Of a stretch of DNA of 10,228 bases, positions 1-10,228 are shown piece by piece (the stretch's first letter is position 1; every line of letters starts with the position of its first letter). The notes under the pieces are model-generated. The model was not told the origin of the DNA. It worked only from the letters and a program-made list of their open reading frames with translations, and ran no database searches. Made by a program: the position numbers and the translations under genes. Source of the DNA: a virus (taxonomy: Duplodnaviria > Heunggongvirae > Uroviricota > Caudoviricetes); the IMG/VR virus record IMGVR_UViG_2923302340_000004, positions 1 through 10,228 of that record. One strand, given 5' to 3'.

Positions 1-1428
1 GTGAAATTATTCAGATTCTCTAAAGTAAAAATTGCAGAACTGCCAACGCCGGAACATGGACAGGTCGAATATGGTGATACGGAGGTTAACGGGCTGCGTG
101 TCCGTGTAGGTTCGTCTGGTGTGAAAAGTTTCTGCATTTCCCGTAAGCGTAACGGAAAATTTATTCGTGCAACGCTGGGGCGTTTTCCTGATCTGAGCGT
201 GGATAATGCCAGGGCTAAAGCTATGGAACTCCTTGGCGAAGTCGCCACAACGGGGATAAATCCGAACATAGCAAAGCGCACTAACAACAAGGCCATGATA
301 ACGCTGAGTGAGGCGATTGACGCCTACGTAAAAAATCGTGGCCACCGCCTGAAACCCGCCACAGAAAAACAGTACCGCAGCATATTACAGAATTATTCCG
401 GTGACTGGATGGCCCATACCCTCGCCAGTATTTCCCGCGAACGGGTGGAACAACGGCATAAGGCCATCACTGATGGGGCTGTATGGTTCGGTGCTGATAA
501 AACCACGTTACGGGCTGGGGTTGGTACAGGAAGCAAGGCACAGGCCGATTTATGGGCGCGTGCGCTACGTGCTGTGTGTCGGTTTGCGCATGATCATTAC
601 CGTGATGATGCGGGTAATACTCTTTTACCGGATCCGCCGACTCTGGTACTGAGCACCAAGCGCCAGTGGCACGGAACGGTAAGAAAAACGGAACGTATCC
701 GCCTGCATGATTTTCCCCGCTGGTTTGCTGCTGTAGCTGCTGTGCGCGACCAGGGCGAACAGGAAAGGGATGATATAGCGGTGACGGTATGCGATGCCGT
801 GGAAATGGCGCTTTTTACCGGACTGAGGAAATCAGAAATTTTTGGCCTTACGTGGGATCGAGTGAATATGGGCGGTCGTTTTTTCTGGATAGACACCACG
901 AAAAACGGGGATCCGCTCGAATTACCGATTACTGATACGTTGCGGGAAATGTTCCACCGCCGACTGAAAATAAAAAACGCTGATGATGTTCTGCTGTTTC
1001 CTGGTGTGAAGGGAGTGATTCAGGAAACACGGCACATCATAGACCGGATAAGCGCGGCTACTGTTCCAGAGTCGAACGATGAAATGCTCTCCCCTGTACC
1101 ATTCAAATGGCACGATGCACGCCGGACGTTCGGAACGGTTGCCGAACTGGTGGGCGTGGGCAATTACATCCTCAAGCGCCTGATGAATCACCGTACTATG
1201 CGAAGTGCTGACGTAACGCAGGGGTATTTACATTTTGGTGCTGATGAACTGCTGGAGCCAGCGTCACGGATAGAACGGGCAATTCTGGAACATGCCGGGC
1301 TGGTGGAGAGTAAAAAATCTATCGATGCGCAATTGCTTTCCGCACTGGAGAGTATGAGTGACAGTGAGAAACGCGCATTACTATTTAGTATCGTTAATTC
1401 AAATGGTGATTTGAATGTCAGAAAATAA
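1..1428 (+). CDS. int: Tyrosine site-specific integrase, P4-type (N-terminal arm-binding domain plus catalytic core)
   Basis: 475-aa ORF. N-terminus (KIAELPTPEHGQVEYGDTEVNGLRVRVGSSGVKSFCISRKRNGKFIRATLG...INP) matches the arm-type DNA-binding domain pattern of P4-family integrases. C-terminal core has the H-x-x-R box (WHDARRTFGT) and a terminal Tyr motif (DVTQGYLHF). Starts with GTG at the window edge, so the true start could be at or just upstream of position 1. Has a ~50-aa C-terminal extension relative to typical members. Confidence 0.9.
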   Translation: MKLFRFSKVKIAELPTPEHGQVEYGDTEVNGLRVRVGSSGVKSFCISRKRNGKFIRATLGRFPDLSVDNARAKAMELLGEVATTGINPNIAKRTNNKAMITLSEAIDAYVKNRGHRLKPATEKQYRSILQNYSGDWMAHTLASISRERVEQRHKAITDGAVWFGADKTTLRAGVGTGSKAQADLWARALRAVCRFAHDHYRDDAGNTLLPDPPTLVLSTKRQWHGTVRKTERIRLHDFPRWFAAVAAVRDQGEQERDDIAVTVCDAVEMALFTGLRKSEIFGLTWDRVNMGGRFFWIDTTKNGDPLELPITDTLREMFHRRLKIKNADDVLLFPGVKGVIQETRHIIDRISAATVPESNDEMLSPVPFKWHDARRTFGTVAELVGVGNYILKRLMNHRTMRSADVTQGYLHFGADELLEPASRIERAILEHAGLVESKKSIDAQLLSALESMSDSEKRALLFSIVNSNGDLNVRK

Positions 1429-2101
1429 AATCATTGCTGCAATAGAATTTGACCATAATGATGCGAAGGATATGAATACTATTGCAGATTATATTAGAGA
1501 TGAACTGGCGTCTTCTTTTGTAAAAAAAACGATATGCGATATGGCAAATATCACACCATCTAAAATGTCTCTGGAGGAGAGATTATCATTATCGTCAGAG
1601 ATAGAAAATAAGGATTTAAAGGTTAATATTTCTGTATGTGCCGGGTATGGAGATGATTTTGATAAAAAATTTAATAGTGCATATTCAGAATTCAATGATA
1701 TTTTGAAAGCTGCCATTATATTTGAAGTTCTTGGTTTCAACAGACTTGCAGATCAGTTACGTGAAAGATATGCGATTTTAGTGTCGGAGAATTTATTAAA
1801 ATCAGTACGTGATATAGCTAATGTAAAGAAAATTATCAGTGAAGACCGTAGTAAAGCAAAGAAAGGAAAAACAAACAGGCATAAATCAACAGCGTTATCT
1901 ATAGCTTGTAACACTTGGAAAAAATACCCTAATGCCAGTTTACCCGGGCTATCCGCAGAGATATACGCGCATTTACGCAATAAATGGAATGATGTCCCTG
2001 TAGTTGGGACTATAGAGAGATGGCTTAAGGAGTCGGGGATGAATCCAAAATCCCCGCAAAAAAACAGGGATTTTAAGTTAGTTATTGGAGACAAAGAATA
2101 A
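1415..2101 (+). CDS. Hypothetical protein, AT-rich accessory (cargo) gene between int and alpA
   Basis: 228-aa ORF. ATG at 1415 is preceded by GGTGA and overlaps the integrase stop by 14 nt. The gene is visibly AT-rich (roughly one-third GC by eye) against ~50% GC flanks. No motif I can confidently assign; C-terminal third is basic (KKGKTNRHK...) and could be nucleic-acid binding. Confidence 0.6.
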   Translation: MSENKIIAAIEFDHNDAKDMNTIADYIRDELASSFVKKTICDMANITPSKMSLEERLSLSSEIENKDLKVNISVCAGYGDDFDKKFNSAYSEFNDILKAAIIFEVLGFNRLADQLRERYAILVSENLLKSVRDIANVKKIISEDRSKAKKGKTNRHKSTALSIACNTWKKYPNASLPGLSAEIYAHLRNKWNDVPVVGTIERWLKESGMNPKSPQKNRDFKLVIGDKE

Positions 2102-2233
2102 ATCCAGTTTTATCCTCTGTAATCCAGATTTCAGTCATGTAAACCAGATATGCGATTTTGTATCTGGTTTTCCTGTCTTCAAGACTTCCCCATCGCTAAA
2201 TAACGTATACCTGTTCTTAATCAGAAGTATACG
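2101..2233 (+). promoter_or_regulatory. Putative alpA promoter/operator region with direct repeats and a perfect 9-bp inverted repeat
   Basis: Direct repeats AATCCAG(A)TTT at 2101-2111 and 2121-2131. Perfect inverted repeat AACCAGATA (2142-2150) - 10 nt - TATCTGGTT (2161-2169), immediately upstream of the alpA start. Confidence 0.35.
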
Positions 2234-2242
2234 GTGATACTC

Positions 2243-2431
2243 ATGCATTTAGAAAAGATGACCCGCAAAGAAGCTGCCGAGCATTTGGGGGTAAGTGTCC
2301 AGACTCTTGCTAACTGGGCGTGTACTGGCAAGGTAAAAATCCCTTTTCATAAGCTGGGGCGCAAAGTGCTGTATATGCGCACTGATCTCGATGCTTATCT
2401 TGCATCCACTCGCAGAACGCAGACGGTGTAA
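2243..2431 (+). CDS. alpA: AlpA-family / excisionase-like helix-turn-helix DNA-binding protein
   Basis: Short protein with the typical HTH signature MTRKEAAEHLGVSVQTLANWACTGKVKIPFHKLGRKVLYMRTDLDAYL (compare AlpA/HTH_17 pattern: hydrophobic-LGVS-x-T-hydrophobic-x-x-W ... G-R-x-hydrophobic-x-hydrophobic-x-x-x-L-x-x-W/Y-L). Located directly after int and a cargo gene, as in CP4-57-type islands. Start ambiguous: GTG 2234, ATG 2243 (GGTGA upstream) or ATG 2258. Confidence 0.8.
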   Translation: MHLEKMTRKEAAEHLGVSVQTLANWACTGKVKIPFHKLGRKVLYMRTDLDAYLASTRRTQTV

Positions 2432-2541
2432 GGGGGAGTGATGGCACATAAAACAAAGGCGACCGCAGAGGGCCGCCAGTGGCATAACACTAAACTTGAG
2501 CATATCCAGAATACCAGGTTGTTGGCTGGTGGGCAATGCAA

Positions 2542-2715
2542 TCAGTCTGGTTCAGTTCGTTGCCATACCTGCAATGGGCGCGTTTCCCTGTACTCTTTAA
2601 GGAATTGCTCAAGGGCAAAAGCACATGGCGCGAATCTTTCTGATTCATGCTCTATCTTTCTGCGCCGTCTTTTCCGTGCCGGTGATAATGTTTTGGTCAA
2701 TTCTTTATCGGTCAT
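2542..2715 (-). CDS. Small basic hypothetical protein (uncertain; may be non-coding)
   Basis: Minus-strand ORF downstream of the RHH gene, reading MTDKELTKTLSPARKRRRRKIEHESERFAPCAFALEQFLKEYRETRPLQVWQRTEPD. AGGA lies 8 nt upstream of the internal ATG; the alternative ATG at 2730 has no SD. Many rare Arg codons (AGA, CGG, AGG). A same-region + strand frame is also open, so the coding strand is not settled. Confidence 0.3.
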   Translation of the reverse strand: MTDKELTKTLSPARKRRRRKIEHESERFAPCAFALEQFLKEYRETRPLQVWQRTEPD

Positions 2716-2772
2716 TGTGTTGTCCTGCATAGCAATGCGCCGTAGTTACTCACACCACGGCGCTGGTGATGG

Positions 2773-2952
2773 TTACTCCTGCTCTTTGGCCTTGCGGCGC
2801 TGGCGGCGTTTGATCTCGCCTTTAACGGCAGTAACTATAAATTGCGCCTTGCTTTCACCTTCATCTAAATTTTTTTCTAAGTCTGCAACAACATCATGCG
2901 GGAATCTGGCATTTAACTGTTGCGACTTATTATTTGTTGAACCTGTTGCCAT
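2773..2952 (-). CDS. Ribbon-helix-helix (Arc/MetJ/CopG-like) small DNA-binding protein, putative transcriptional repressor
   Basis: 59-aa product MATGSTNNKSQQLNARFPHDVVADLEKNLDEGESKAQFIVTAVKGEIKRRQRRKAKEQE. Layout is beta-strand (QQLNARFP), helix A, G-x-S turn (GES), helix B, basic tail, which is the classical RHH pattern. ATG at 2952-2950 is preceded by a strong SD (GAGAGGA) 7 nt upstream. The longer ORF-track version (to 3126) has an implausible N-terminal extension covering the promoter. Confidence 0.6.
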   Translation of the reverse strand: MATGSTNNKSQQLNARFPHDVVADLEKNLDEGESKAQFIVTAVKGEIKRRQRRKAKEQE

Positions 2953-3142
2953 TACTGAATCCTCTCTAAGTTGGTGCGATTCAGTATACACAAAAAAAAT
3001 TTCAGAGAAAGGCTTGAAGTGCGATTCACTTTCTGATAGGTTAAAAACGAATGGTGCGATGCACCAAGCAACAACGCCCCGCAGTGGTGGCACACATGCA
3101 GGGCGTCTAACCACCAACGATAGCAACAGTATCGAGGCAGCT
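2953..3142. promoter_or_regulatory. Divergent control region between the RHH gene (-) and the icd-like gene (+), with repeated GTGCGAT operator-like motifs
   Basis: GGTGCGATTCAG at 2973-2984, AGTGCGATTCAC at 3018-3029, and the palindromic GGTGCGATGCACC at 3053-3065. A -10-like TATACT (minus strand, plus coordinates 2983-2988) overlaps the first repeat, just upstream of the RHH SD. Confidence 0.4.
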
Positions 3143-3346
3143 ATGAGAAATTATACCAGACACCCGCAAGGGCGGGACTCGTACAACCTGAATAAATACA
3201 TCTGGCGTTTTATCGCCCTGAGCACGGCACAACCGCGCGTGATTACCATTGAGGCCACCAGCGAACAGGAAGCGCGTCAGCAATCTCCGGCTGGCTGCGT
3301 GATGGTATTCGCCGCCCGTATTCGTCAGGGGGTGTGCCATGCCTGA
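3143..3346 (+). CDS. Icd-like small protein (host cell division inhibitor Icd-like family), tentative
   Basis: 67-aa product MRNYTRHPQGRDSYNLNKYIWRFIALSTAQPRVITIEATSEQEARQQSPAGCVMVFAARIRQGVCHA. The YIW-F-A ... IEA-SE-EAR ... FAAR pattern resembles the short Icd-like proteins annotated in P4-like elements. GAGG lies 7 nt upstream of ATG 3143. The upstream in-frame extension of the ORF track (from 2438) looks non-coding. Confidence 0.55.
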   Translation: MRNYTRHPQGRDSYNLNKYIWRFIALSTAQPRVITIEATSEQEARQQSPAGCVMVFAARIRQGVCHA

Positions 3347-3659
3347 TATGTCAAATTACCAGTACCTGATTAATCCGCATTTTAACTGTGAGCATGATAT
3401 TGCTAAAAAGGTTTATTCCGCTGCTGATGAGGCTACTGACAATATATCAATGGCTGTTGCGTCAATTGGTAGCCTGATGTGGCATGCGTCAGAAAATGAG
3501 GACTATGACGAAAAGGCCATGCGCATTGATATGGGTAATATCGGTTTGTTACTGGCAATGCTTGGGCGGTTTGATATTTCGTTACGGTGCACCATTGAAA
3601 ATGCCACAGATGCATTAAATGCCATAAAGAAAGCGAATACTGATTCAAATCGGGGATAA
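3339..3659 (+). CDS. Hypothetical protein
   Basis: 106-aa ORF. Its ATG overlaps the icd-like stop (ATGCCTGA), suggesting translational coupling. A G-rich SD-like stretch lies upstream. Acidic protein with no recognisable motif. Confidence 0.55.
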   Translation: MPDMSNYQYLINPHFNCEHDIAKKVYSAADEATDNISMAVASIGSLMWHASENEDYDEKAMRIDMGNIGLLLAMLGRFDISLRCTIENATDALNAIKKANTDSNRG

Positions 3660-3665
3660 ATAATC

Positions 3666-3965
3666 ATGAGAACATATTTATCTGGCTTGACTGCCAGCGG
3701 TTATGCACACCCCAAAATTATCCCCGGCGCTATTTATCTGGATAAGAACGGTAACAGAGTAACGGTAAAAGAACTGATGTTTGACCGTGTGTATTTTATT
3801 CGTGATGGCTATTCATTTCATAGTTCGCTGAACGTGGAGATCTTTATTAGCAGATTCCGGCGGGAAATCCCGACTTCCAGAAATAACCATGTGTCACGTG
3901 TGGATGTGGATAAAAAACTGCAGGAACTGAAAAACATGATTGCCGCGTGGAGAGAGCCGAAATGA
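3666..3965 (+). CDS. Hypothetical protein (small, precedes the primase)
   Basis: 99-aa ORF. GGGGA SD lies 9 nt upstream of ATG 3666. Its stop TGA (3963-3965) overlaps the primase ATG (3962) as ATGA. No motif confidently assigned. Confidence 0.55.
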   Translation: MRTYLSGLTASGYAHPKIIPGAIYLDKNGNRVTVKELMFDRVYFIRDGYSFHSSLNVEIFISRFRREIPTSRNNHVSRVDVDKKLQELKNMIAAWREPK

Positions 3966-6085
3966 AAAAAGCGCCAAATTTAAAACACCAGCCGCGTGAC
4001 AAAATGACGGAAGTCATCATTTTTGCGGGTAGTGATGCGTGGGCACATGCGAAGCAGTGGCAGGAACAGGACGGGCGACTGGCTGGCGATAACGTGCCTC
4101 CTGTCTGGCTTGGAGAGCAACAACTTGCCGAACTGGACAACCTGCAAATCGTACCGGACGGACGCTATCGCGTGCGTCTCTATCAGGCGGGGTTATTGCG
4201 TCCGGGGCTTGTTAATACCATCGGGCAGAAACTGGCAGCGGCAGGTGTCAGGGATGCTGATTATTACCCTGAAGGAATGCACAGCCAGAAACGGGAGAAC
4301 TGGCGCGAATATCTGGAACGTGAACGGGCAGAGCAGGCGGAAAAGAAAAAGGTAGTTGAACTGCCTGTAAAGAAAAAAGAGCCATGCTATCAGGATGATG
4401 AATTAAAGCCCCGCGTTGAAAGTCGCGTCGATGGTGTTTTCTGGGTAACGCCCAAAGTGGATAAGCAGTCAGGCGAAATTATCCGGCCTGAGACGTGGTT
4501 ATGTTCTCCGCTTGAACTACTGGGAACGGGGACGATCGGTAAAGAGCATTACCGCGTGATGCGCTGGAAAAAATTAGCAAACCATGAAGTCATCACAATG
4601 GCGATCCCGTGTGGTGGCATTGGCGACCGTGACGGCTGGCGGTTGCTTAAAGATCACGGGCTGAACGTGACAACAAACGGCAAATACAGGGCTATCCTGG
4701 CTGACTGGATGCAGTTAAGCGGAAGCCATGAGGAATGGCAGCTAAGCACAACAACGGGCTGGCATTTTGGCGCGTATATCATGCCGGACGGCTCAATCAT
4801 TGGTGATTCTGAAAAACCGATCCTGTTTACCGGAAAAAGTGCCGCTGTTAATGGCTATTCGGTTGCGGGTACGGCGGAGGGCTGGCGCGACTGCGTGGCG
4901 CGGCTGGCTGGTGGCAATCCGTCCATGATGCTGGGTGTTGCCACGTCACTGGCAGCACCTTTGATTGGCCTTGTTGGTGCTGACGGCTTCGGGGTACATC
5001 TTTTCGAACAGTCATCGGCAGGGAAAACCACCACGCAGAACATCGCATCCAGTTTATGGGGAGAGCCGGACGCACAACGGCTGACCTGGTACGGCACAGC
5101 GTTAGGTATCGCTAACGAGGCAGAGGCGCACAACGACGGGCTGTTACCCCTGGATGAAATAGGCCAGGCCGGAAACGCGCGGGAGGTGTCCACGTCAGCC
5201 TATACGTTGTTTAACGGTTCCGGGAAATTACAGGGGGCGAAGGACGGCGGCAACCGGGAGATAAAACACTGGCGCACGGTGGCAATCAGCACCGGAGAAA
5301 TGGACGTTGAGACATTCCTCAAAACGGAGGGGATAAAAGTCAAAGCGGGGCAGCTTGTCCGCCTGCTTAACGTTCCGATGGAAAAAGCCACGCACTTTCA
5401 CGAATACAGCACCGGAAAGGCGCACGCAGACGCGTTAAAGGATGCCTGGACAGAAAATCACGGGGCAGCGGGTCGTGAGTGGGTTAAATGGCTGGCAGGC
5501 CACCAGCAGGAGGCAAAGGATACGGTAAGGGAATGCCGCGAACGGTGGCGCAACCTGATACCGGAGAGCTACGGCGAGCAGGTCCACCGCGTGGGTGAGC
5601 GTTTCGCCATACTGGAGGCCGCGCTTGTGCTTTCCGGTCATGTAACTGGCTGGGCCGCGCAGGAATGCCGGGACGCAATACAGCATAACTTTAATGCCTG
5701 GGTGAAGGAGTTCGGCACGGGTAACAGGGAATTTAAACAGATGGTTGAACAGGCTGAGGCGTTTTTGTCGTCGTTCGGGTTCAGTCGATACCTTCCTTAC
5801 CCAAACAGTGATGAACGTGATTTACCGATTAAAGACCTTGCCGGATACAGAAAGGGGAGTATCAGAAATGAAGATGATGAGTTCCGTTTTTACACGTTTC
5901 CTCATGTGTTTGAGGGGGAGATCGCACAGGGATTTAACCCGTCCCACTTTGCCCGCGCGTTGAGTGCTGCCGGAATGCTGGAAGCGGGTAACGATCGCCG
6001 TTACAAGAAAAAGGCTCTCGGCAAAATTGGGGGGAAGCAGCATGTTTTTTACGTGCTGATGTTCCAGCCTGAGGCAGAAGATTAA
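3962..6085 (+). CDS. Replication protein: primase/helicase-like with a central P-loop NTPase domain (PICI Pri-Rep / P4 alpha-like role)
   Basis: ~708-aa ORF. ATG 3962 is preceded by GAGAG and overlaps the upstream stop; the ORF-track start is a GTG at 3947. Walker A-like FEQSSAGKTTTQ and Walker B-like GLLPLDEIGQ lie in the middle of the protein. Its size and position immediately upstream of an iteron array are typical of satellite/plasmid primase-helicases (DUF927-like). The family name is from memory. Confidence 0.8.
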   Translation: MKKAPNLKHQPRDKMTEVIIFAGSDAWAHAKQWQEQDGRLAGDNVPPVWLGEQQLAELDNLQIVPDGRYRVRLYQAGLLRPGLVNTIGQKLAAAGVRDADYYPEGMHSQKRENWREYLERERAEQAEKKKVVELPVKKKEPCYQDDELKPRVESRVDGVFWVTPKVDKQSGEIIRPETWLCSPLELLGTGTIGKEHYRVMRWKKLANHEVITMAIPCGGIGDRDGWRLLKDHGLNVTTNGKYRAILADWMQLSGSHEEWQLSTTTGWHFGAYIMPDGSIIGDSEKPILFTGKSAAVNGYSVAGTAEGWRDCVARLAGGNPSMMLGVATSLAAPLIGLVGADGFGVHLFEQSSAGKTTTQNIASSLWGEPDAQRLTWYGTALGIANEAEAHNDGLLPLDEIGQAGNAREVSTSAYTLFNGSGKLQGAKDGGNREIKHWRTVAISTGEMDVETFLKTEGIKVKAGQLVRLLNVPMEKATHFHEYSTGKAHADALKDAWTENHGAAGREWVKWLAGHQQEAKDTVRECRERWRNLIPESYGEQVHRVGERFAILEAALVLSGHVTGWAAQECRDAIQHNFNAWVKEFGTGNREFKQMVEQAEAFLSSFGFSRYLPYPNSDERDLPIKDLAGYRKGSIRNEDDEFRFYTFPHVFEGEIAQGFNPSHFARALSAAGMLEAGNDRRYKKKALGKIGGKQHVFYVLMFQPEAED

Positions 6086-6116
6086 CCCCCTGTGTGAGGT
6101 GAAAAGTTGCGTGTTA

Positions 6117-6424
6117 TGCGGGTTACTATGTGTATAAGTGCATTAACTGCATGAATAAAAAGGAAATCAATAACCCGCACGTAACCCGCAAAACGGCAGT
6201 TATAACCCGCAAAAGTGCGATTATAACCCGCAGATGAATAACAGGAAGTGACAGCAAACAGCCACGCGTAACCCGCAGAAAAAACCCCGTTTGCGGGTTA
6301 TTTTGAGCATTTTGCGGGTTACGCCACGGCTAAACAGTAAACAGTTAATTTTGTAATGTATTGATATTAAGGAATAAAAAATACTTAGCAAGCGAAGATA
6401 ACCCGCTAACCCGCATAACCCGCA
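6117..6424. repeat. Iteron array, putative origin of replication of the element
   Basis: At least 11 copies of the 9-bp motif TAACCCGCA in both orientations. Forward copies at 6171, 6182, 6203, 6224, 6269, 6407 and 6416, plus variant TAACCCGCT at 6399. Reverse copies TGCGGGTTA at 6117, 6292 and 6313. Several spacings are 11 or 21 bp (helical phasing). An AT-rich stretch (about 6330-6395) and TATATATATA (about 6433-6442) lie within and beside the array. Located directly 3' of the primase gene. Confidence 0.7.
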
Positions 6425-6463
6425 CTGTTTTGTATATATATACGAAAAATTGAGATCTGAACT

Positions 6464-6706
6464 ATGAAGGCAAACCGCAAACAACCACACTACCGCGCTA
6501 TTGACCTTACAGAGCACTGGCTGAGAGTGGCGATAAAAATCATCGACCGAAACACGGGGGAAGGATATGCAAAAGCACATCCCGAACTGATAAGCGCATT
6601 CATGACAACGGCAGCTGCAAACTTTGCCACGTTGACAGAACGGGAGATTGCCGAAGCGGAACAGGTGACAACCATCAACGTTAAAACCGGAGAGCAGATA
6701 GCATGA
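6464..6706 (+). CDS. Hypothetical protein
   Basis: 80-aa ORF immediately after the iteron region. Its stop overlaps the SSB-like start (ATGA). Weak SD; function unknown. Confidence 0.45.
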   Translation: MKANRKQPHYRAIDLTEHWLRVAIKIIDRNTGEGYAKAHPELISAFMTTAAANFATLTEREIAEAEQVTTINVKTGEQIA

Positions 6707-7125
6707 CAGCACAGATAGCGGCTTACGGACGGCTGGTGGCTGACCCGCAGTTAAAGACCACCAGCAAGGGTACACAAATGGCGATGGCTAGTATGGCGGT
6801 CCCCCTTCCGTGCAGCCAGGCAGATGACGGAACGGCGATGATGTGGTTATCCGTCCTGGCGTTTGGCAGACAGGCCGACGCACTGGCAAAACACCACAAA
6901 GGCGAACTGGTGAGCGTGGCGGGTAACATGCAGGTAAGCCAGTGGACAGGCCAGAACGGCGAAACGCGGCAGGGCTGGCAGGTTATCGCAGACAGCGTGA
7001 TCAGTGCGCGAACAGCGCGACCGGGCGGCAAAAAAGGCCAGCAGGGGCAGGCCACTGACGCATTGAACAGGGCAAAACAACAGTCGGGGAATGATGATCC
7101 GTACGGCGATAATATACCGTTTTAA
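6703..7125 (+). CDS. ssb: Single-stranded DNA-binding protein (SSB-like, short form)
   Basis: 140 aa. OB-fold region aligns by eye to E. coli SSB: GRLVADPQLK...MAMASMAV against GNLGQDPEVR...VANITLAT, W..V.AFG..A..LAKHHKGELVSVAGNMQVSQWTGQNGETRQ against [43 protein letters not shown]. Gly/Gln-rich linker and acidic C-terminal tail DDPYGDNIPF (SSB ends in DDDIPF). GGAGAG SD lies 8 nt upstream. Confidence 0.75.
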   Translation: MTAQIAAYGRLVADPQLKTTSKGTQMAMASMAVPLPCSQADDGTAMMWLSVLAFGRQADALAKHHKGELVSVAGNMQVSQWTGQNGETRQGWQVIADSVISARTARPGGKKGQQGQATDALNRAKQQSGNDDPYGDNIPF

Positions 7126-7142
7126 ATTCTGCAAACAAAAAG

Positions 7143-7171
7143 ATGCCGGAAAAAAATAGATTTTCCGGCAT
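7143..7171. terminator. Perfect 11-bp stem-loop (ATGCCGGAAAA / TTTTCCGGCAT, 7-nt loop) after ssb; possible terminator or RNA structure
   Basis: Inverted repeat at 7143-7153 and 7161-7171, 18 nt after the ssb stop. There is no U-tract 3' of the stem on the + strand (the T-run is inside the stem); a T-rich run follows on the - strand. The terminator call is therefore weak. Confidence 0.3.
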
Positions 7172-7336
7172 GCTACATAAATCCCGACCAAAGGAAGTAA
7201 ATACATTAACACGAATTATCAGCACTGAAGTTGTTACGGCATATTTTATACAACATTGCACTTGGTTGCATGTATTTGCATAGCAGACATCGGTAATAGA
7301 ATATATTCACAATTATTTGTAATGAATGTAAAGAGG

Positions 7337-8383
7337 ATGAGTATGGTTGATTTATATTCGCCTACACAGCTTGTGCAGGTGGCTAATGCTGAAGATGTGC
7401 AAAAAAAATTAAATGCGTTGTTTACCAGTTTGTTTTTCACTCGCTCGGTAATGTTTGAATCGAGAGACATTATTCTTGATACGATCGACGATCCAAATAT
7501 CCCGATCGCGGCGTTTTGCTCTCCTATGGTGGGCAGTAAAGTTTCACGAGATGAGGGATACGAATCAAAAACAATTCGTCCAGGTTATATGAAGCCGAAA
7601 AGCAGCATTGATCCAAATAAGTTAGCTGTGCGCCCTGCTGGTGTGTCACCTGAGCAATACAATGCTTTTGGGGCGCGTAATATTAAAGTTAAACAGGCGA
7701 TTGTAAATCAGGCTAAAGCTATTCGTGCACGTATTGAATGGCTTGCTGTTCAGGCAATCACAACGGGGAAAAATATCATTGAGGGCGATGGTATTGAACG
7801 TTATGAGCTGGACTGGAATATAAAACCACAAAATATCATCACTCAGTCTGGCGGTACTGAGTGGTCAGGTAAGGATAAAGAAACTTTTGATCCAAATGAT
7901 GATATTGAGAGCTACGCAGAATTTAGTGAGGGCGTCACTAATATCATCATTATGGGTGGTAATGTATGGAAGAAATACCGTTCATTCAGAGCGATAAAAG
8001 AGGCTTTGGATACCCGTCGTGGCTCTAATTCCGAACTGGAAACGGCCCTTAAAGACCTTGGTGATTCGGTGAGTTTTAAAGGGTATATGGGCGATGTTGC
8101 GATTGTTGTTTACAGCGGGCGTTATACCGACGAGGACGGAACTGAAAAATATTTCCTTGATCCTGATTTGATGGTGCTTGGCAATACGGCTCTTCAGGGG
8201 ATTGTCGCTTATGGCGGTATTCAGGATCCGGAGCTAATCCGGATGGGGCTGACTAAAGCCGAACTTGCACCGAAAAACTATATTGTGCCTGGTGATCCGG
8301 CTATTGAATATGTGCAGACACATTCAGCACCACAGCCAATACCGGCCCGCATCAATCGTTTTGTTACCGTTCGCATTGGCTAA
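7337..8383 (+). CDS. Major capsid protein, lambda gpE family
   Basis: Extensive collinear similarity to lambda gpE as I recall it: MSM start, then NIITQSGGTEWSGKDKETFDPNDDIESYA, LDTRRGSNSELETALKDLG, YMGDVAIVVYSG, MVLGNT, GDPAIEYVQTHSAP against lambda NITQSGGTEWSKRDKSTYDPTDDIEAYA, LDTRRGSNSELETAVKDLG, MYGDVAIVVYSG, MVLGNT, GDPAREFTMIQSAP. SD AAGAGGA lies at 7331-7337; the start is ATG 7337 or, with better spacing, ATG 7343. The ORF-track start at 7256 is an artefactual extension. Confidence 0.9.
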   Translation: MSMVDLYSPTQLVQVANAEDVQKKLNALFTSLFFTRSVMFESRDIILDTIDDPNIPIAAFCSPMVGSKVSRDEGYESKTIRPGYMKPKSSIDPNKLAVRPAGVSPEQYNAFGARNIKVKQAIVNQAKAIRARIEWLAVQAITTGKNIIEGDGIERYELDWNIKPQNIITQSGGTEWSGKDKETFDPNDDIESYAEFSEGVTNIIIMGGNVWKKYRSFRAIKEALDTRRGSNSELETALKDLGDSVSFKGYMGDVAIVVYSGRYTDEDGTEKYFLDPDLMVLGNTALQGIVAYGGIQDPELIRMGLTKAELAPKNYIVPGDPAIEYVQTHSAPQPIPARINRFVTVRIG

Positions 8384-8392
8384 GGGGGAGCA

Positions 8393-8734
8393 ATGGCTAC
8401 TCATTACACTGAACTCATGTCTGGCACTGAAGCACTGGTTACTACGCTGGGGATATTTTCAGCCAATAAAGGGGTAATACCTGCGTTTACGCCACTGATG
8501 CAGGAAGATGCAACTGGTGCGCTAGTGGTATGGGATGGAACGAGCGCAGGCAAAGCGGTTTATGTTTCCGCTGTACAAATCGACACAGCGAAAAAAACAC
8601 AGGCACAGGTTTATAAGACAGGTGTTTTAAATGTTGATGCTCTGAACTGGCCTGAGTCTGTAAAAGAACTGTCGGCAAAGGTTGCCGCGTTTGTTGGCTC
8701 AGGTATTTCTGTTCAGCCGCTGGCTCGTGTGTAA
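8393..8734 (+). CDS. Head decoration protein, lambda gpD family
   Basis: 113 aa. PAFTPLMQEDATGALVVWDGTSAGKAVYVSAVQ...YKTGVLNVDALNWPE...AAFVGSGISVQ aligns by eye with lambda gpD [32 protein letters not shown]...YKSGTFRYEDVLWPE...TAFAGTAISIV. Strong SD TAAGGGGGAG is coupled to the capsid gene stop. Confidence 0.8.
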   Translation: MATHYTELMSGTEALVTTLGIFSANKGVIPAFTPLMQEDATGALVVWDGTSAGKAVYVSAVQIDTAKKTQAQVYKTGVLNVDALNWPESVKELSAKVAAFVGSGISVQPLARV

Positions 8735-8745
8735 AGGGGGATACA

Positions 8746-9129
8746 ATGCAGAATCATTACAATGACCTTAAGCCAATTGCCGAAATGATGTATCCGGATC
8801 CAGCAGTAGAGGAATTAAAGGCTATTGCTGACAAAATGCGTTTAAGTGAACGCCTTGTTGATATGAATCAGGTGATGGAACTTACTACCCTTAGCCGTCG
8901 CACATTGCTAAACCTTGAGGCTCGCGGAGAGTTCCCCGAACGCGTACAGGTTACGGAAGGGCGTAAGGCCTGGTATTTAAGTGAAGTGATCGACTGGATA
9001 AACAATATTCCTCGAGCTTCTGAATATTGCCGCGTACCTGTCCCAAAAAAGCCAGATGCGGCGCTATGCCTCAAGATTGAGCGTGTACGCCGCAATGCAT
9101 GGGATGGTCGCTATAAGCTGATTGGTTGA
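8746..9129 (+). CDS. Second AlpA-like / excisionase-type HTH protein with N- and C-terminal extensions
   Basis: 127 aa. Central segment VDMNQVMELTTLSRRTLLNLEARGEFPERVQVTEGRKAWYLSEVIDWINN matches the AlpA/HTH_17 signature (TGLSRSTIYRL...G.FP.P...G.R...W...E...W). SD TAAAGGGGGA is coupled to the gpD-like stop. Lies immediately upstream of the cos site. Confidence 0.65.
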   Translation: MQNHYNDLKPIAEMMYPDPAVEELKAIADKMRLSERLVDMNQVMELTTLSRRTLLNLEARGEFPERVQVTEGRKAWYLSEVIDWINNIPRASEYCRVPVPKKPDAALCLKIERVRRNAWDGRYKLIG

Positions 9130-9182
9130 TGAAATTAGGGCCCGTTCTGGCTGGCGGGTCCTTTCCGGCGATCCGGTAGGCT

Positions 9183-9230
9183 ACGGGGCGGCGACCTTGC
9201 GGATTTTCGCTATTTATGAGCCTTTTCGGG
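9183..9230. other. cos site: lambda-type cosN (12-nt cohesive-end sequence GGGCGGCGACCT at 9186-9197) with flanking sequence, followed by a divergent cosB-like region
   Basis: ACGGGGCGGCGACCTTGCGGATTTTCGCTATTTATGAGCCTTTTCGGG is near-identical over ~35 nt to the lambda left end GGGCGGCGACCTCGCGGGTTTTCGCTATTTATGAAAATTTTCCGG (from memory). It sits ~135-150 nt upstream of the Nu1-like gene, as in lambda. Sequence beyond ~9220 diverges from lambda cosB. Confidence 0.75.
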
Positions 9231-9330
9231 TTGGTGGTGGTGGTTTTGTTTTTCGCTCTATCTCTATGAATAAAAAGGGAAAGATAACACCAACACACCA
9301 ACCTGAAACCTTAACTAAGTGGGGATATTG

Positions 9331-9873
9331 ATGAAATCGCACCTGATGAACAAAAAAACTATGGCGCAAAGCTGCCGCGTAAGTGCGACAGCGTTCGACA
9401 AGTGGGGAGTAACTCCCGTTGAGCGTAAAGGCCGTGAGGCGTTTTATGATGTTGCTAGCGTGATAGACAATAGGGTTAACAATGCAATTAACCAGCTTAC
9501 AAACGACAAAGGCGAGATTGATGATGATGAACTTTTACGCGTAAGAATCAGATTAATGACGGCCCAGGCGGAAGCGCAGGAACTTAAAAACGAGCGCGAA
9601 CGCGGCGAGGTGATTGATACAAAGTTTTGCATCTACGCGATTTCAAAACTAGCGAGTCAGATTTCATCAATCATGGACAGCCTCCCGCTCACAATGCAAA
9701 GGCGCTTTCCCGATATAAAGCCGTATATGCTGGATGAACTAAAAAGGGAAATAGCCAAAGCATGTAACGCATGTGCAAGACTTGACGAAAACCTGCCACA
9801 GATACTGGCTGATTACCTGATGGAAACTACCGGAAACGCGCCTGAGAAGTTGCTAGAGAACAAAGGCGAGTAA
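9331..9873 (+). CDS. Terminase small subunit, lambda Nu1 family (satellite TerS / packaging-redirection candidate)
   Basis: RLMTAQAEAQELKNERERGEVIDTKFCIYAISKLASQISSIMDSLPLTMQRRFPDI matches lambda Nu1 RLTRAQADAQELKNARDSAEVVETAFCTFVLSRIAGEIASILDGLPLSVQRRFPEL. The N-terminus MNKKTMAQ... corresponds to the Nu1 wHTH start MEVNKKQLAD. GGGGA SD precedes ATG 9331; alternative ATG at 9346; the ORF-track start is GTG 9319. Confidence 0.85.
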   Translation: MKSHLMNKKTMAQSCRVSATAFDKWGVTPVERKGREAFYDVASVIDNRVNNAINQLTNDKGEIDDDELLRVRIRLMTAQAEAQELKNERERGEVIDTKFCIYAISKLASQISSIMDSLPLTMQRRFPDIKPYMLDELKREIAKACNACARLDENLPQILADYLMETTGNAPEKLLENKGE

Positions 9874-9946
9874 CCGCCGCCCCGTAACGGGCCATAATTC
9901 CAGGAAGGACCCGACGACACCAGGCTATCAGAACGATGAGGGCACA

Positions 9947-10228
9947 ATGACTGAAGCCGAACTACTGGGATTAATCCGCCGCGTCGTCGGAATCAGCCAG
10001 CAGCATGACGAACAGGCCACACAGCCGGACAGCGTGACCGCTGAAAATTATGTGCGTGTTGTTGCTGAGGTGATGCGCCGTGATGGTATTGAGCTTAACG
10101 GCGTGGATATGCGCAACATACGAACAAGAGTCCTTGAGTTGCTGGCATACCGTCGCCGTTCTCAACAACGGAGGGAGAGCGCGAAAAATACTTACCAGTG
10201 GAAGAAGCCGGAACGGTTGCGGCGGTAG
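9947..10228 (+). CDS. Hypothetical small basic protein downstream of TerS
   Basis: 93-aa ORF with GAGGG SD 6 nt upstream of ATG 9947; stop TAG at 10226-10228 is the last codon of the window. Arg-rich C-terminus. No similarity I can recognise to the lambda gpA N-terminus. Confidence 0.45.
   Translation: MTEAELLGLIRRVVGISQQHDEQATQPDSVTAENYVRVVAEVMRRDGIELNGVDMRNIRTRVLELLAYRRRSQQRRESAKNTYQWKKPERLRR

Follow-up and report, generated by a model that had tools for sequence, protein, structure and literature searches.

The closest characterised relative of the DNA described here is EcCICFT073, a validated phage-inducible chromosomal island (PICI) of Escherichia coli. Its genes c1499 and c1500 have been named capsid and head decoration (PMC6092414), its RppA protein (c1503) binds the small terminase subunit (TerS) of the helper phage and retargets it to the cohesive-end site (cos) of the island (PMC6739421), and the island is packaged in phage-sized capsids (PMC6092414; PMC10111431). 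A capsid gene is carried by 21 of the 29 reference Gram-negative PICIs (PMC10111431). In the SatelliteFinder classification, Type A PICIs combine an integrase (int), a regulator, a primase-replicase (pri-rep), a capsid gene and terS, the presence of tail, holin, portal and head-tail genes being forbidden, and 97% of the Type A islands were found in E. coli (PMC10085698). We have analysed a stretch of 10,228 nucleotides, hereafter the window, which corresponds to positions 1 to 10,228 of the virus record IMGVR_UViG_2923302340_000004 and which an earlier note had described as a hybrid satellite that could not be assigned with certainty to a described family. The reading we propose, with a probability of about 0.85, is that the window represents the inner part of an island that belongs to the classical Gram-negative PICIs, in the EcCICFT073 family of E. 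coli, and to SatelliteFinder Type A (int, regulator, pri-rep, capsid homologue and terS). It is a terS variant of an already described PICI family and not a new kind of hybrid satellite. The one departure from the model layout that we stress is the presence, after cos, of a full-length Nu1-type terS with its own candidate cosB at the place where EcCICFT073 has rpp.

Gene content and family assignment

The genes were assigned from a listing of the open reading frames (ORFs) followed by Pfam, PHROG and NCBIfam scans. The listing holds 16 genes, 14 on the plus strand and two (2542-2730 and 2773-2952) on the minus strand, and the single co-directional unit announced in the earlier note is therefore correct for the 14 rightward genes and incorrect for the other two. 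The features on which the assignment is built are the following.

1-1428, plus strand: tyrosine integrase of 475 aa (Pfam Phage_integrase and Arm-DNA-bind_3; PHROG 1 integrase)
2234-2431, plus strand: excisionase-family helix-turn-helix (HTH) regulator at the alpA position (HTH_17, E = 1.3e-12; TIGR01764 'excise')
3947-6085, plus strand: Pri-Rep, DUF927 primase/helicase replication initiator (DUF927, E = 2e-47; PHROG 1139 DNA primase, E = 1e-180)
6107-6424, no strand: replication origin with two TAACCCGCA iteron sets around an AT-rich stretch at about 6325-6400
6703-7125, plus strand: single-stranded DNA-binding protein (SSB) (Pfam SSB, E = 2e-15; 69% identical to the EcCICFT073 SSB)
7322-8383, plus strand: gpE-family major capsid protein homologue of the PICI lineage (Phage_cap_E, E = 3e-41)
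8393-8734, plus strand: gpD-family head decoration protein homologue (HDPD, E = 2e-15)
8746-9129, plus strand: HTH127, AlpA-family protein of 127 aa (Phage_AlpA, E = 1.4e-8; PDB 8C3T AlpA, E = 1.6e-10)
9154-9232, plus strand: lambda-type cosQ-cosN segment (88.6% identical to lambdoid phage cos)
9223-9309, no strand: candidate cosB specific to the island (imperfect inverted repeat of 87 bp, on the right side of cosN)
9331-9873, plus strand: Nu1-type TerS, full length, 180 aa (Phage_Nu1, E = 7e-24; PHROG 57, E = 1e-53)

Homologues of 12 of the 16 window proteins are found in EcCICFT073 in the same order, with identities ranging from 25 to 96%, and both islands have a length of about 11 kb. The likeness covers int, the regulator, two small minus-strand genes, the Icd-like and DUF4222 genes, pri, the iteron origin, orf80 and the SSB gene and, in the right half, the capsid (c1499) and decoration (c1500) genes, one small gene, a lambda-type cos, a packaging-specificity gene and orf93. 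Because the gene content and order, capsid and decoration genes included, match those of EcCICFT073, and because the published PICI descriptions cover this architecture, we consider the element to be a member of a described family, and the term hybrid is no longer needed. Further differences from the model concern the replicase, which is of the DUF927 type in the window, the absence from the window of a PerC gene, the regulator (AlpA in EcCICFT073, HTH_17 in the window) and the integration site, which in EcCICFT073 is the roxA-phoQ interval served by another integrase and in the 1EC213 copy of the window island is a tRNA. The two integrases share only 25% identity, as expected from their different attachment (att) sites.

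The features by which Gram-negative PICIs are recognised (PMC6092414) are found in the window, namely a left-end integrase followed by a regulator of the accepted AlpA/MerR-type class, a primase-replicase with an iteron origin directly 3' of it in which two iteron sets surround an AT-rich region, near-unidirectional rightward genes in a size range of about 10-15 kb without lysis or tail genes, and homology and synteny with the validated member EcCICFT073; the specific att site with direct repeats is found in a 98%-identical relative and not in the window. The 9-mer TAACCCGCA occurs in 10 exact copies within 6117-6424, against 0.13 expected, and in zero copies elsewhere in the window, and the layout of these iterons agrees with the published description of Gram-negative PICI origins (PMC6092414, Fig. 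2 legend). Residues 223-607 of Pri-Rep gave a match to PDB 8TCH, a chain named 'Pathogenicity island protein' (E = 4e-15), and the N-terminal half of the protein is 37% identical to the Pri of EcCICFT073. With Pfam and PHROG families as proxies for the components of Type A, the core (int, regulator, pri-rep, capsid and terS) is present in the canonical order, none of the window ORFs matches the forbidden components (tail, holin, portal, head-tail connector or adaptor), and no difference between the window and Type A (PMC10085698) was found. The same scans of every ORF gave no match to the portal, protease/scaffold, large terminase subunit (TerL), tail or lysis families, in agreement with the earlier note. 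The elements that it had enumerated (integrase, primase/NTPase, iteron origin, gpE-like and gpD-like proteins, lambda-type cos and Nu1-like TerS) all lie where it had placed them and have statistical support, and the profile searches it had asked for on gpE, gpD and Nu1 bear out the three names, with the E values given above. Its AlpA was right as to the presence of a regulator at the alpA position and wrong as to the family: the product of 2234-2431 has no Pfam Phage_AlpA match and no detectable similarity to the AlpA of EcCICFT073, and the Phage_AlpA match is instead that of 8746-9129. We regard the 2234-2431 gene product as a positional analogue of the PICI AlpA.

Since the capsid, decoration and TerS proteins and the cos belong to lambda families, the window could also be seen as the remnant of a degraded or rearranged lambdoid prophage, reduced to int, part of the replication genes, E, D, cos and Nu1. 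The surroundings of its nearest relative speak against this. An island of E. coli 1EC213 (L001), which shares 97-98% identity with the window, is flanked by nfeF on one side and, on the other, by a tRNA followed by mug and rpoD. The tRNA has a CAU anticodon and is called tRNA-Ile by RefSeq and, on account of this anticodon, tRNA-Met by ARAGORN. A 65-nt att repeat derived from the 3' half of this tRNA, with the core CGACCAAGCGATTATGAGT, is present in two copies 11,236 bp apart, one of which (attL) is the displaced tRNA 3' half, 180 bp upstream of int, and the other (attR) lies inside the intact tRNA. Because the 1EC213 copy lies between host genes and is bounded by clean tRNA-derived att repeats, the complete element measures about 11.2 kb, contains nothing phage-like beyond the window and is not a truncated prophage. 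The flanks, whose inspection the earlier note had recommended, contain host genes on both sides and no portal, TerL, tail or lysis genes, and the view of that note that the element is a satellite of lambdoid phages and not a prophage is upheld. Furthermore, the same compact architecture is met with again in other genera and at att sites that differ, the genes are all intact and under selection, the replicon is of the PICI type (Pri-Rep and iterons) and not lambda O/P, and the identity of the window proteins to phage proteins does not exceed 48%. The contiguous late operon of a lambdoid prophage (A, W, B, C, Nu3, D, E, tail), its lysis cassette and its O/P replicon were looked for in the window, and only Nu1, E and D homologues were found; lambda and N15 share with the window the families of Nu1, cos, D and E, but only three of the approximately ten lambda head and packaging genes are represented, the D-E order is opposite and the cosB is unrelated. 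A prophage remnant is very improbable in view of these observations.

Two further observations concern the ends of the 1EC213 island. A 45-nt second repeat (ACGGTATCCTATAGGTATCCT...) is present just inside both ends (L001 11906-11950 and 22922-22966), outside the part that corresponds to the window, and may represent arm-type binding sites of the integrase or binding sites of the excisionase. The island-supplied tRNA 3' half and the displaced copy (L001 11756-11820 and 22992-23056) differ by paired changes in the T-arm, from CTGG...CCAG to TTGG...CCAA, and since the changes are paired the rebuilt tRNA keeps its stem.

Other satellites share parts of this gene set. P4 also combines an integrase, an HTH regulator and a primase in about 11 kb, and the capsid-forming PICIs (cf-PICIs) also have capsid and TerS genes, EcCIEDL933 (bioRxiv 10.1101/2022.09.08.507074) being similar to the window by its left half (int, regulator, rep) and by the possession of a capsid protein and a TerS. 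However, the small heads of the cf-PICIs are of their own making, and genes for TerL, HNH, portal, protease and head-tail connectors belong to their equipment, whereas none of these genes is present in the window, from which the components that define the class (TerL, portal, protease, HNH, head-tail adaptor/connector; PMC10085698) are missing; neither the window nor the complete 1EC213 relative contains a TerL, portal, prohead protease or head-tail adaptor/connector gene. The suggestion of a capsid-encoding satellite that steals tails, in the sense of a cf-PICI, has consequently been abandoned. As to P4, from which the earlier note had correctly distinguished the element, the Pfam and PHROG scans of the ORFs revealed no homologue of sid, psu, delta or epsilon (Ash), and the cos is of the lambda and not of the P2 type. 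We hold a P4-like satellite or a cf-PICI to be even less probable than a prophage remnant.

Our assignment of the window to Type A of the EcCICFT073 family has to be balanced against several points. The classification was made with Pfam and PHROG proxies rather than with the SatelliteFinder HMMs (hidden Markov models). By sequence, the gene at the alpA position is not an AlpA orthologue, and because this HTH_17 regulator is unlike the AlpA of EcCICFT073, the induction switch of the island may differ from that of the model. The boundaries and the tRNA target are those of the relative 1EC213, the window, whose first bases are the start codon of int and whose last are a stop codon, holding no att site. 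The induction, the identity of the helper, the TerS-cosB binding and the TerS-TerL pairing are all features that we infer for this island, and in the literature that could be searched we found no functional study devoted to the Nu1-type TerS of any E. coli PICI.

The cos site, its candidate cosB and the TerS cassette

The segment 9154-9232 aligns with cosQ, cosN and the region to the right of cosN in lambda, in the CFT073 prophage and in cos1 of EcCICFT073. The cosN GGGCGGCGACCT, at 9186-9197, is an exact match to that of lambda (12 of 12 bases) and is the single exact copy in the window, whereas EcCICFT073 is reported with two cosN. The left arm of the 87-bp repeat spans the position equivalent to R3, at bp 48-65 from the cosN (cohesive) end, the R3 position used for this placement being that of PMC9026076, and the whole repeat is conserved in terS-type islands (1EC213, O157:H7) and unrelated in lambda and in the rpp-type EcCICFT073. 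In other words, lambda and the island have cosQ and cosN in common, but not cosB, which varies together with the cassette present, terS or rpp. The palindrome at 9223-9309 is probably the TerS-binding cosB of the terS-type PICIs. The only Rfam hit in the window, to mir-3910, falls on this inverted repeat and was rejected as spurious (30.7 bits against a gathering score of 95).

Over residues 3-180, a span that includes the C-terminal region by which Nu1 binds TerL (PMC6739421, PMC9026076), the adjoining TerS and lambda Nu1 share 37% identity; the best phage match of this TerS is gp1 of N15 (48%). In EcCICFT073 this slot is occupied by RppA, a dissimilar protein of 144 aa (c1503). The TerS resembles neither RppA nor the RppC structure, and no protein of the window resembles Rpp, while the Rpp of a Trabulsiella island, used as a control, was readily detected by the same test; a cos PICI of the Rpp type (PMC6739421) was discarded as a description of the window on these results. 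The icd lambdoid prophage of CFT073 served as a lambda-like comparator.

Three other islands place the two types of gene in the same slot. In the island located by phoQ in E. coli O157:H7 strain 7409 (L006, RefSeq annotation), whose layout is that of EcCICFT073, a Nu1-type terS (85% aa identity) stands in the rpp slot and is accompanied by the same cosB repeat. This island differs from the window by a pre-cos gene of the EcCICFT073 type, a helicase of the RepA type, the possession of PerC and an att site at phoQ. In the Trabulsiella island, the capsid, decoration and HTH127 genes are followed by the Rpp homologue (6HLK, E = 1e-15; 32% identical to RppA), and in the Buttiauxella island the same three genes are followed by a TerS 50% identical to that of the window. 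Since the islands of O157:H7, Trabulsiella and Buttiauxella hold one or the other gene in an equal slot, terS and rpp are, to judge from this synteny, alternative cassettes within one PICI family. The Buttiauxella island (B. selenatireducens CP133838, L007) has, on one flank, a phage Nu1 gene (1-285) and, on the other, FI-like, P2-type baseplate and tail-fibre genes (13245-20384); PICIs embedded in a helper have been described (PMC10111431), and this island may be one of them.

The islands of Staphylococcus aureus (SaPIs) follow a comparable logic. In the pac-type SaPI1 and SaPIbov1, the TerS of the island pairs with the TerL of the helper and redirects packaging, as we propose for the window island, and SaPIbov5 encodes a capsid homologue, Ccm, as the window does. 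The SaPIs differ by their Gram-positive hosts, by their unrelated sequences and by their use of headful packaging (pac SaPIs) or of the helper's own cos (SaPIbov5).

Proposed packaging cycle and the role of the capsid module

The model we propose combines homology to the characterised PICIs with the features described above. A lambdoid cos helper phage would switch on the regulator adjoining int, and Int would excise the island of about 11.2 kb from its tRNA site. Pri-Rep would then fire the iteron origin located just downstream of its own gene, with the help of the island SSB, to generate concatemers. The island TerS would recognise its private cosB (9223-9309) via its divergent N-terminal winged helix, and its better conserved C-terminal half would recruit the gpA-type TerL of the helper. 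TerL would nick the lambda-identical cosN, and the DNA would enter heads made with the portal, protease and scaffold of the helper, which would also supply the tails and the lysis functions. The Rpp of EcCICFT073 must borrow the helper TerS, and the complete TerS of the window island would do the same job directly. A Ppi-like blocker of the helper TerS was not identified in the window.

The capacity of the lambda head is relevant to the size of the packaged product. The DNA that lambda packages measures roughly 75-105% of the phage genome in length. An island of 11.2 kb in four copies amounts to 44.9 kb, or 93% of the lambda genome, three copies to 69% and five copies to 116%. As 93% falls in the packaging range of lambda, and in agreement with the phage-sized packaging of EcCICFT073, the arithmetic favours a tetramer in a head of normal size.

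The place of the capsid and decoration proteins in this cycle has to be considered separately. The capsid protein is 54% identical to c1499 of EcCICFT073 (whose crystal structure, PDB 3BQW, it matches with E = 2e-122). Its identity to lambda gpE is 42%, over 98% of the length, and that to the capsid protein of the CFT073 lambdoid prophage 43%, and it is thus nearer to c1499 than to either phage protein. The decoration protein is likewise 54% identical to c1500 and 40% identical to lambda gpD. The ratio of nonsynonymous to synonymous substitution rates (dN/dS) is 0.04-0.14 for the capsid gene, about 0.15 for the decoration gene and 0.17 for terS, and this overall range of 0.04-0.18 argues that the three are functional genes under purifying selection. 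Their capsid-then-decoration order, the reverse of the D-E order of lambda, is kept in every island examined (EcCICFT073, O157, Buttiauxella and Trabulsiella).

An intact capsid and decoration pair of a PICI-specific lineage, maintained by selection in an order opposite to that of lambda across genera, in an island with its own TerS and cosB, raises the idea that the gpE and gpD homologues form small island-sized heads, or redirect their formation, with the portal, protease and scaffold of the helper, and that these heads are filled by the island TerS. The window island would then be intermediate between the classical PICIs and the cf-PICIs. Precedents exist in Ccm of SaPIbov5 and possibly in PmCI172, which make small capsids with capsid homologues (PMC6092414, PMC8569155). 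Against this stand the results obtained with EcCICFT073, in which deletion of c1499 or c1500 did not relieve the interference with lambda and which is found in capsids of phage size (PMC6092414), as well as the summary statement that the capsid genes of PICIs are not needed for transfer assisted by a helper (PMC10111431). Furthermore, genes for a scaffold, a protease and a portal are absent from the island, and the tetramer would fit a normal head. On balance, we think it unlikely that the island builds or remodels capsids in this way. A more specific proposal, to which we give slightly less credit still, is that the terS-type E. coli PICIs in general are functional intermediates whose capsid-decoration(-HTH127) module builds or re-sizes island-specific heads in a helper-specific manner, the TerS and the private cosB filling them; the helper specificity would explain how such an activity was missed with lambda, phi80 and EcCICFT073. 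The classical PICI reading, in which the DNA enters helper heads of normal size, is therefore the one retained in our model.

HTH127 sits between the decoration gene and cos and forms the third member of a conserved capsid-decoration-HTH trio. It always comes after the capsid and decoration genes and before cos in islands of Escherichia, Enterobacter, Citrobacter, Klebsiella, Trabulsiella and Buttiauxella, at equal positions in the Buttiauxella and Trabulsiella islands (L007 10001-10384; L008 10001-10384), and the length of the family is constant across the Enterobacteriaceae. No phage homologue of HTH127 was found. The pre-cos gene of EcCICFT073 (137 aa, L003 32084-32497, probably c1501 or c1502) is unrelated to it. 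The protein gave no match to Rpp, and because it co-occurs with either terS or rpp downstream, the idea that it acts as an Rpp-like or Ppi-like blocker of the helper TerS is weakened. An AlphaFold2 model built from a 19-sequence alignment was too poor for use (mean predicted local distance difference test score, pLDDT, of 49; predicted template modelling score, pTM, of 0.26).

Distribution, mosaicism and the remaining genes

The HTH127-cos-terS packaging segment is present, to an extent of at least 80%, in 263 of 5,426 complete E. coli genomes, and in about 2,000 there is some part of the window. Such islands are thus common in E. coli; lambdoid phages suffer interference from them and accessory genes are mobilised by them, and a correct annotation of the window is the main value of the present analysis. 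Two questions concern the family as a whole: what is the role of strongly conserved gpE-like and gpD-like genes that were dispensable in the one island tested, and how does a satellite TerS of the Nu1 type compete with the helper TerS for TerL at a common cosN?

The comparison with 1EC213 reveals a mosaic. Between the window and the 1EC213 island, TerS shows an amino-acid identity of only 81%, as against 99-100% for the capsid, decoration and Pri proteins in its neighbourhood, and the segment 2550-3075, which 1EC213 lacks, shares 83% identity with EcCICFT073. This pattern suggests an exchange of cassettes among PICIs, with the packaging-specificity gene as a putative hot spot.

The remaining genes of the window are listed below.

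1415-2101, plus strand: orf228, accessory gene of no assigned function (low GC, about 0.35; overlaps the stop codon of int with its start)
2542-2730, minus strand: orf62, small conserved PICI ORF of 62 aa (96% identical to an EcCICFT073 hypothetical protein, L003 25243-25416; phrog_21027)
2773-2952, minus strand: small protein of the YlcI/YnfO family (63% identical to the EcCICFT073 homologue; phrog_949; RefSeq name in 1EC213)
3143-3346, plus strand: Icd-like protein (NCBIfam phage_ICD_like, E = 1.5e-19; 94% identical to the EcCICFT073 homologue)
3339-3659, plus strand: orf106, of no assigned function (phrog_15327, E = 1e-70)
3666-3965, plus strand: DUF4222 protein (Pfam DUF4222, E = 7e-17; 34% identical to the EcCICFT073 homologue)
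6464-6706, plus strand: orf80, encoded upstream of ssb and conserved among PICIs (92% identity with the EcCICFT073 homologue; phrog_1231)
9947-10228, plus strand: orf93, conserved terminal PICI gene of no assigned function (78% identical to the last EcCICFT073 gene; phrog_1561, E = 1e-56)

The product of orf228 (228 aa) is encoded at a GC content of about 0.35, against about 0.5 in the adjoining genes, and gave no match in Pfam, PHROG, PADLOC or NCBIfam. Its 86 homologues, every one annotated as 'hypothetical protein', come from Enterobacterales (Citrobacter, Klebsiella, Raoultella, Pectobacterium and Salmonella). As the interval between int and the regulator, in which the gene lies, is one that harbours accessory genes in PICIs (PMC10085698), we regard orf228 as a candidate gene for cargo or defence. 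PADLOC and NCBIfam assigned none of orf228, orf106, orf62, orf80 and orf93 to a defence system.

The DUF4222 gene lies directly upstream of pri in the EcCICFT073, O157 and Buttiauxella islands as well. An Rfam scan of the window found no C4-like antisense RNA upstream of the Icd-like gene. In a scan of the window, promoter-like sequences numbered eight, below the mean of 14.5 in shuffled sequences, and terminator-like sequences numbered 18, modestly above the 11.1 (standard deviation 3.3) of the shuffled ones.

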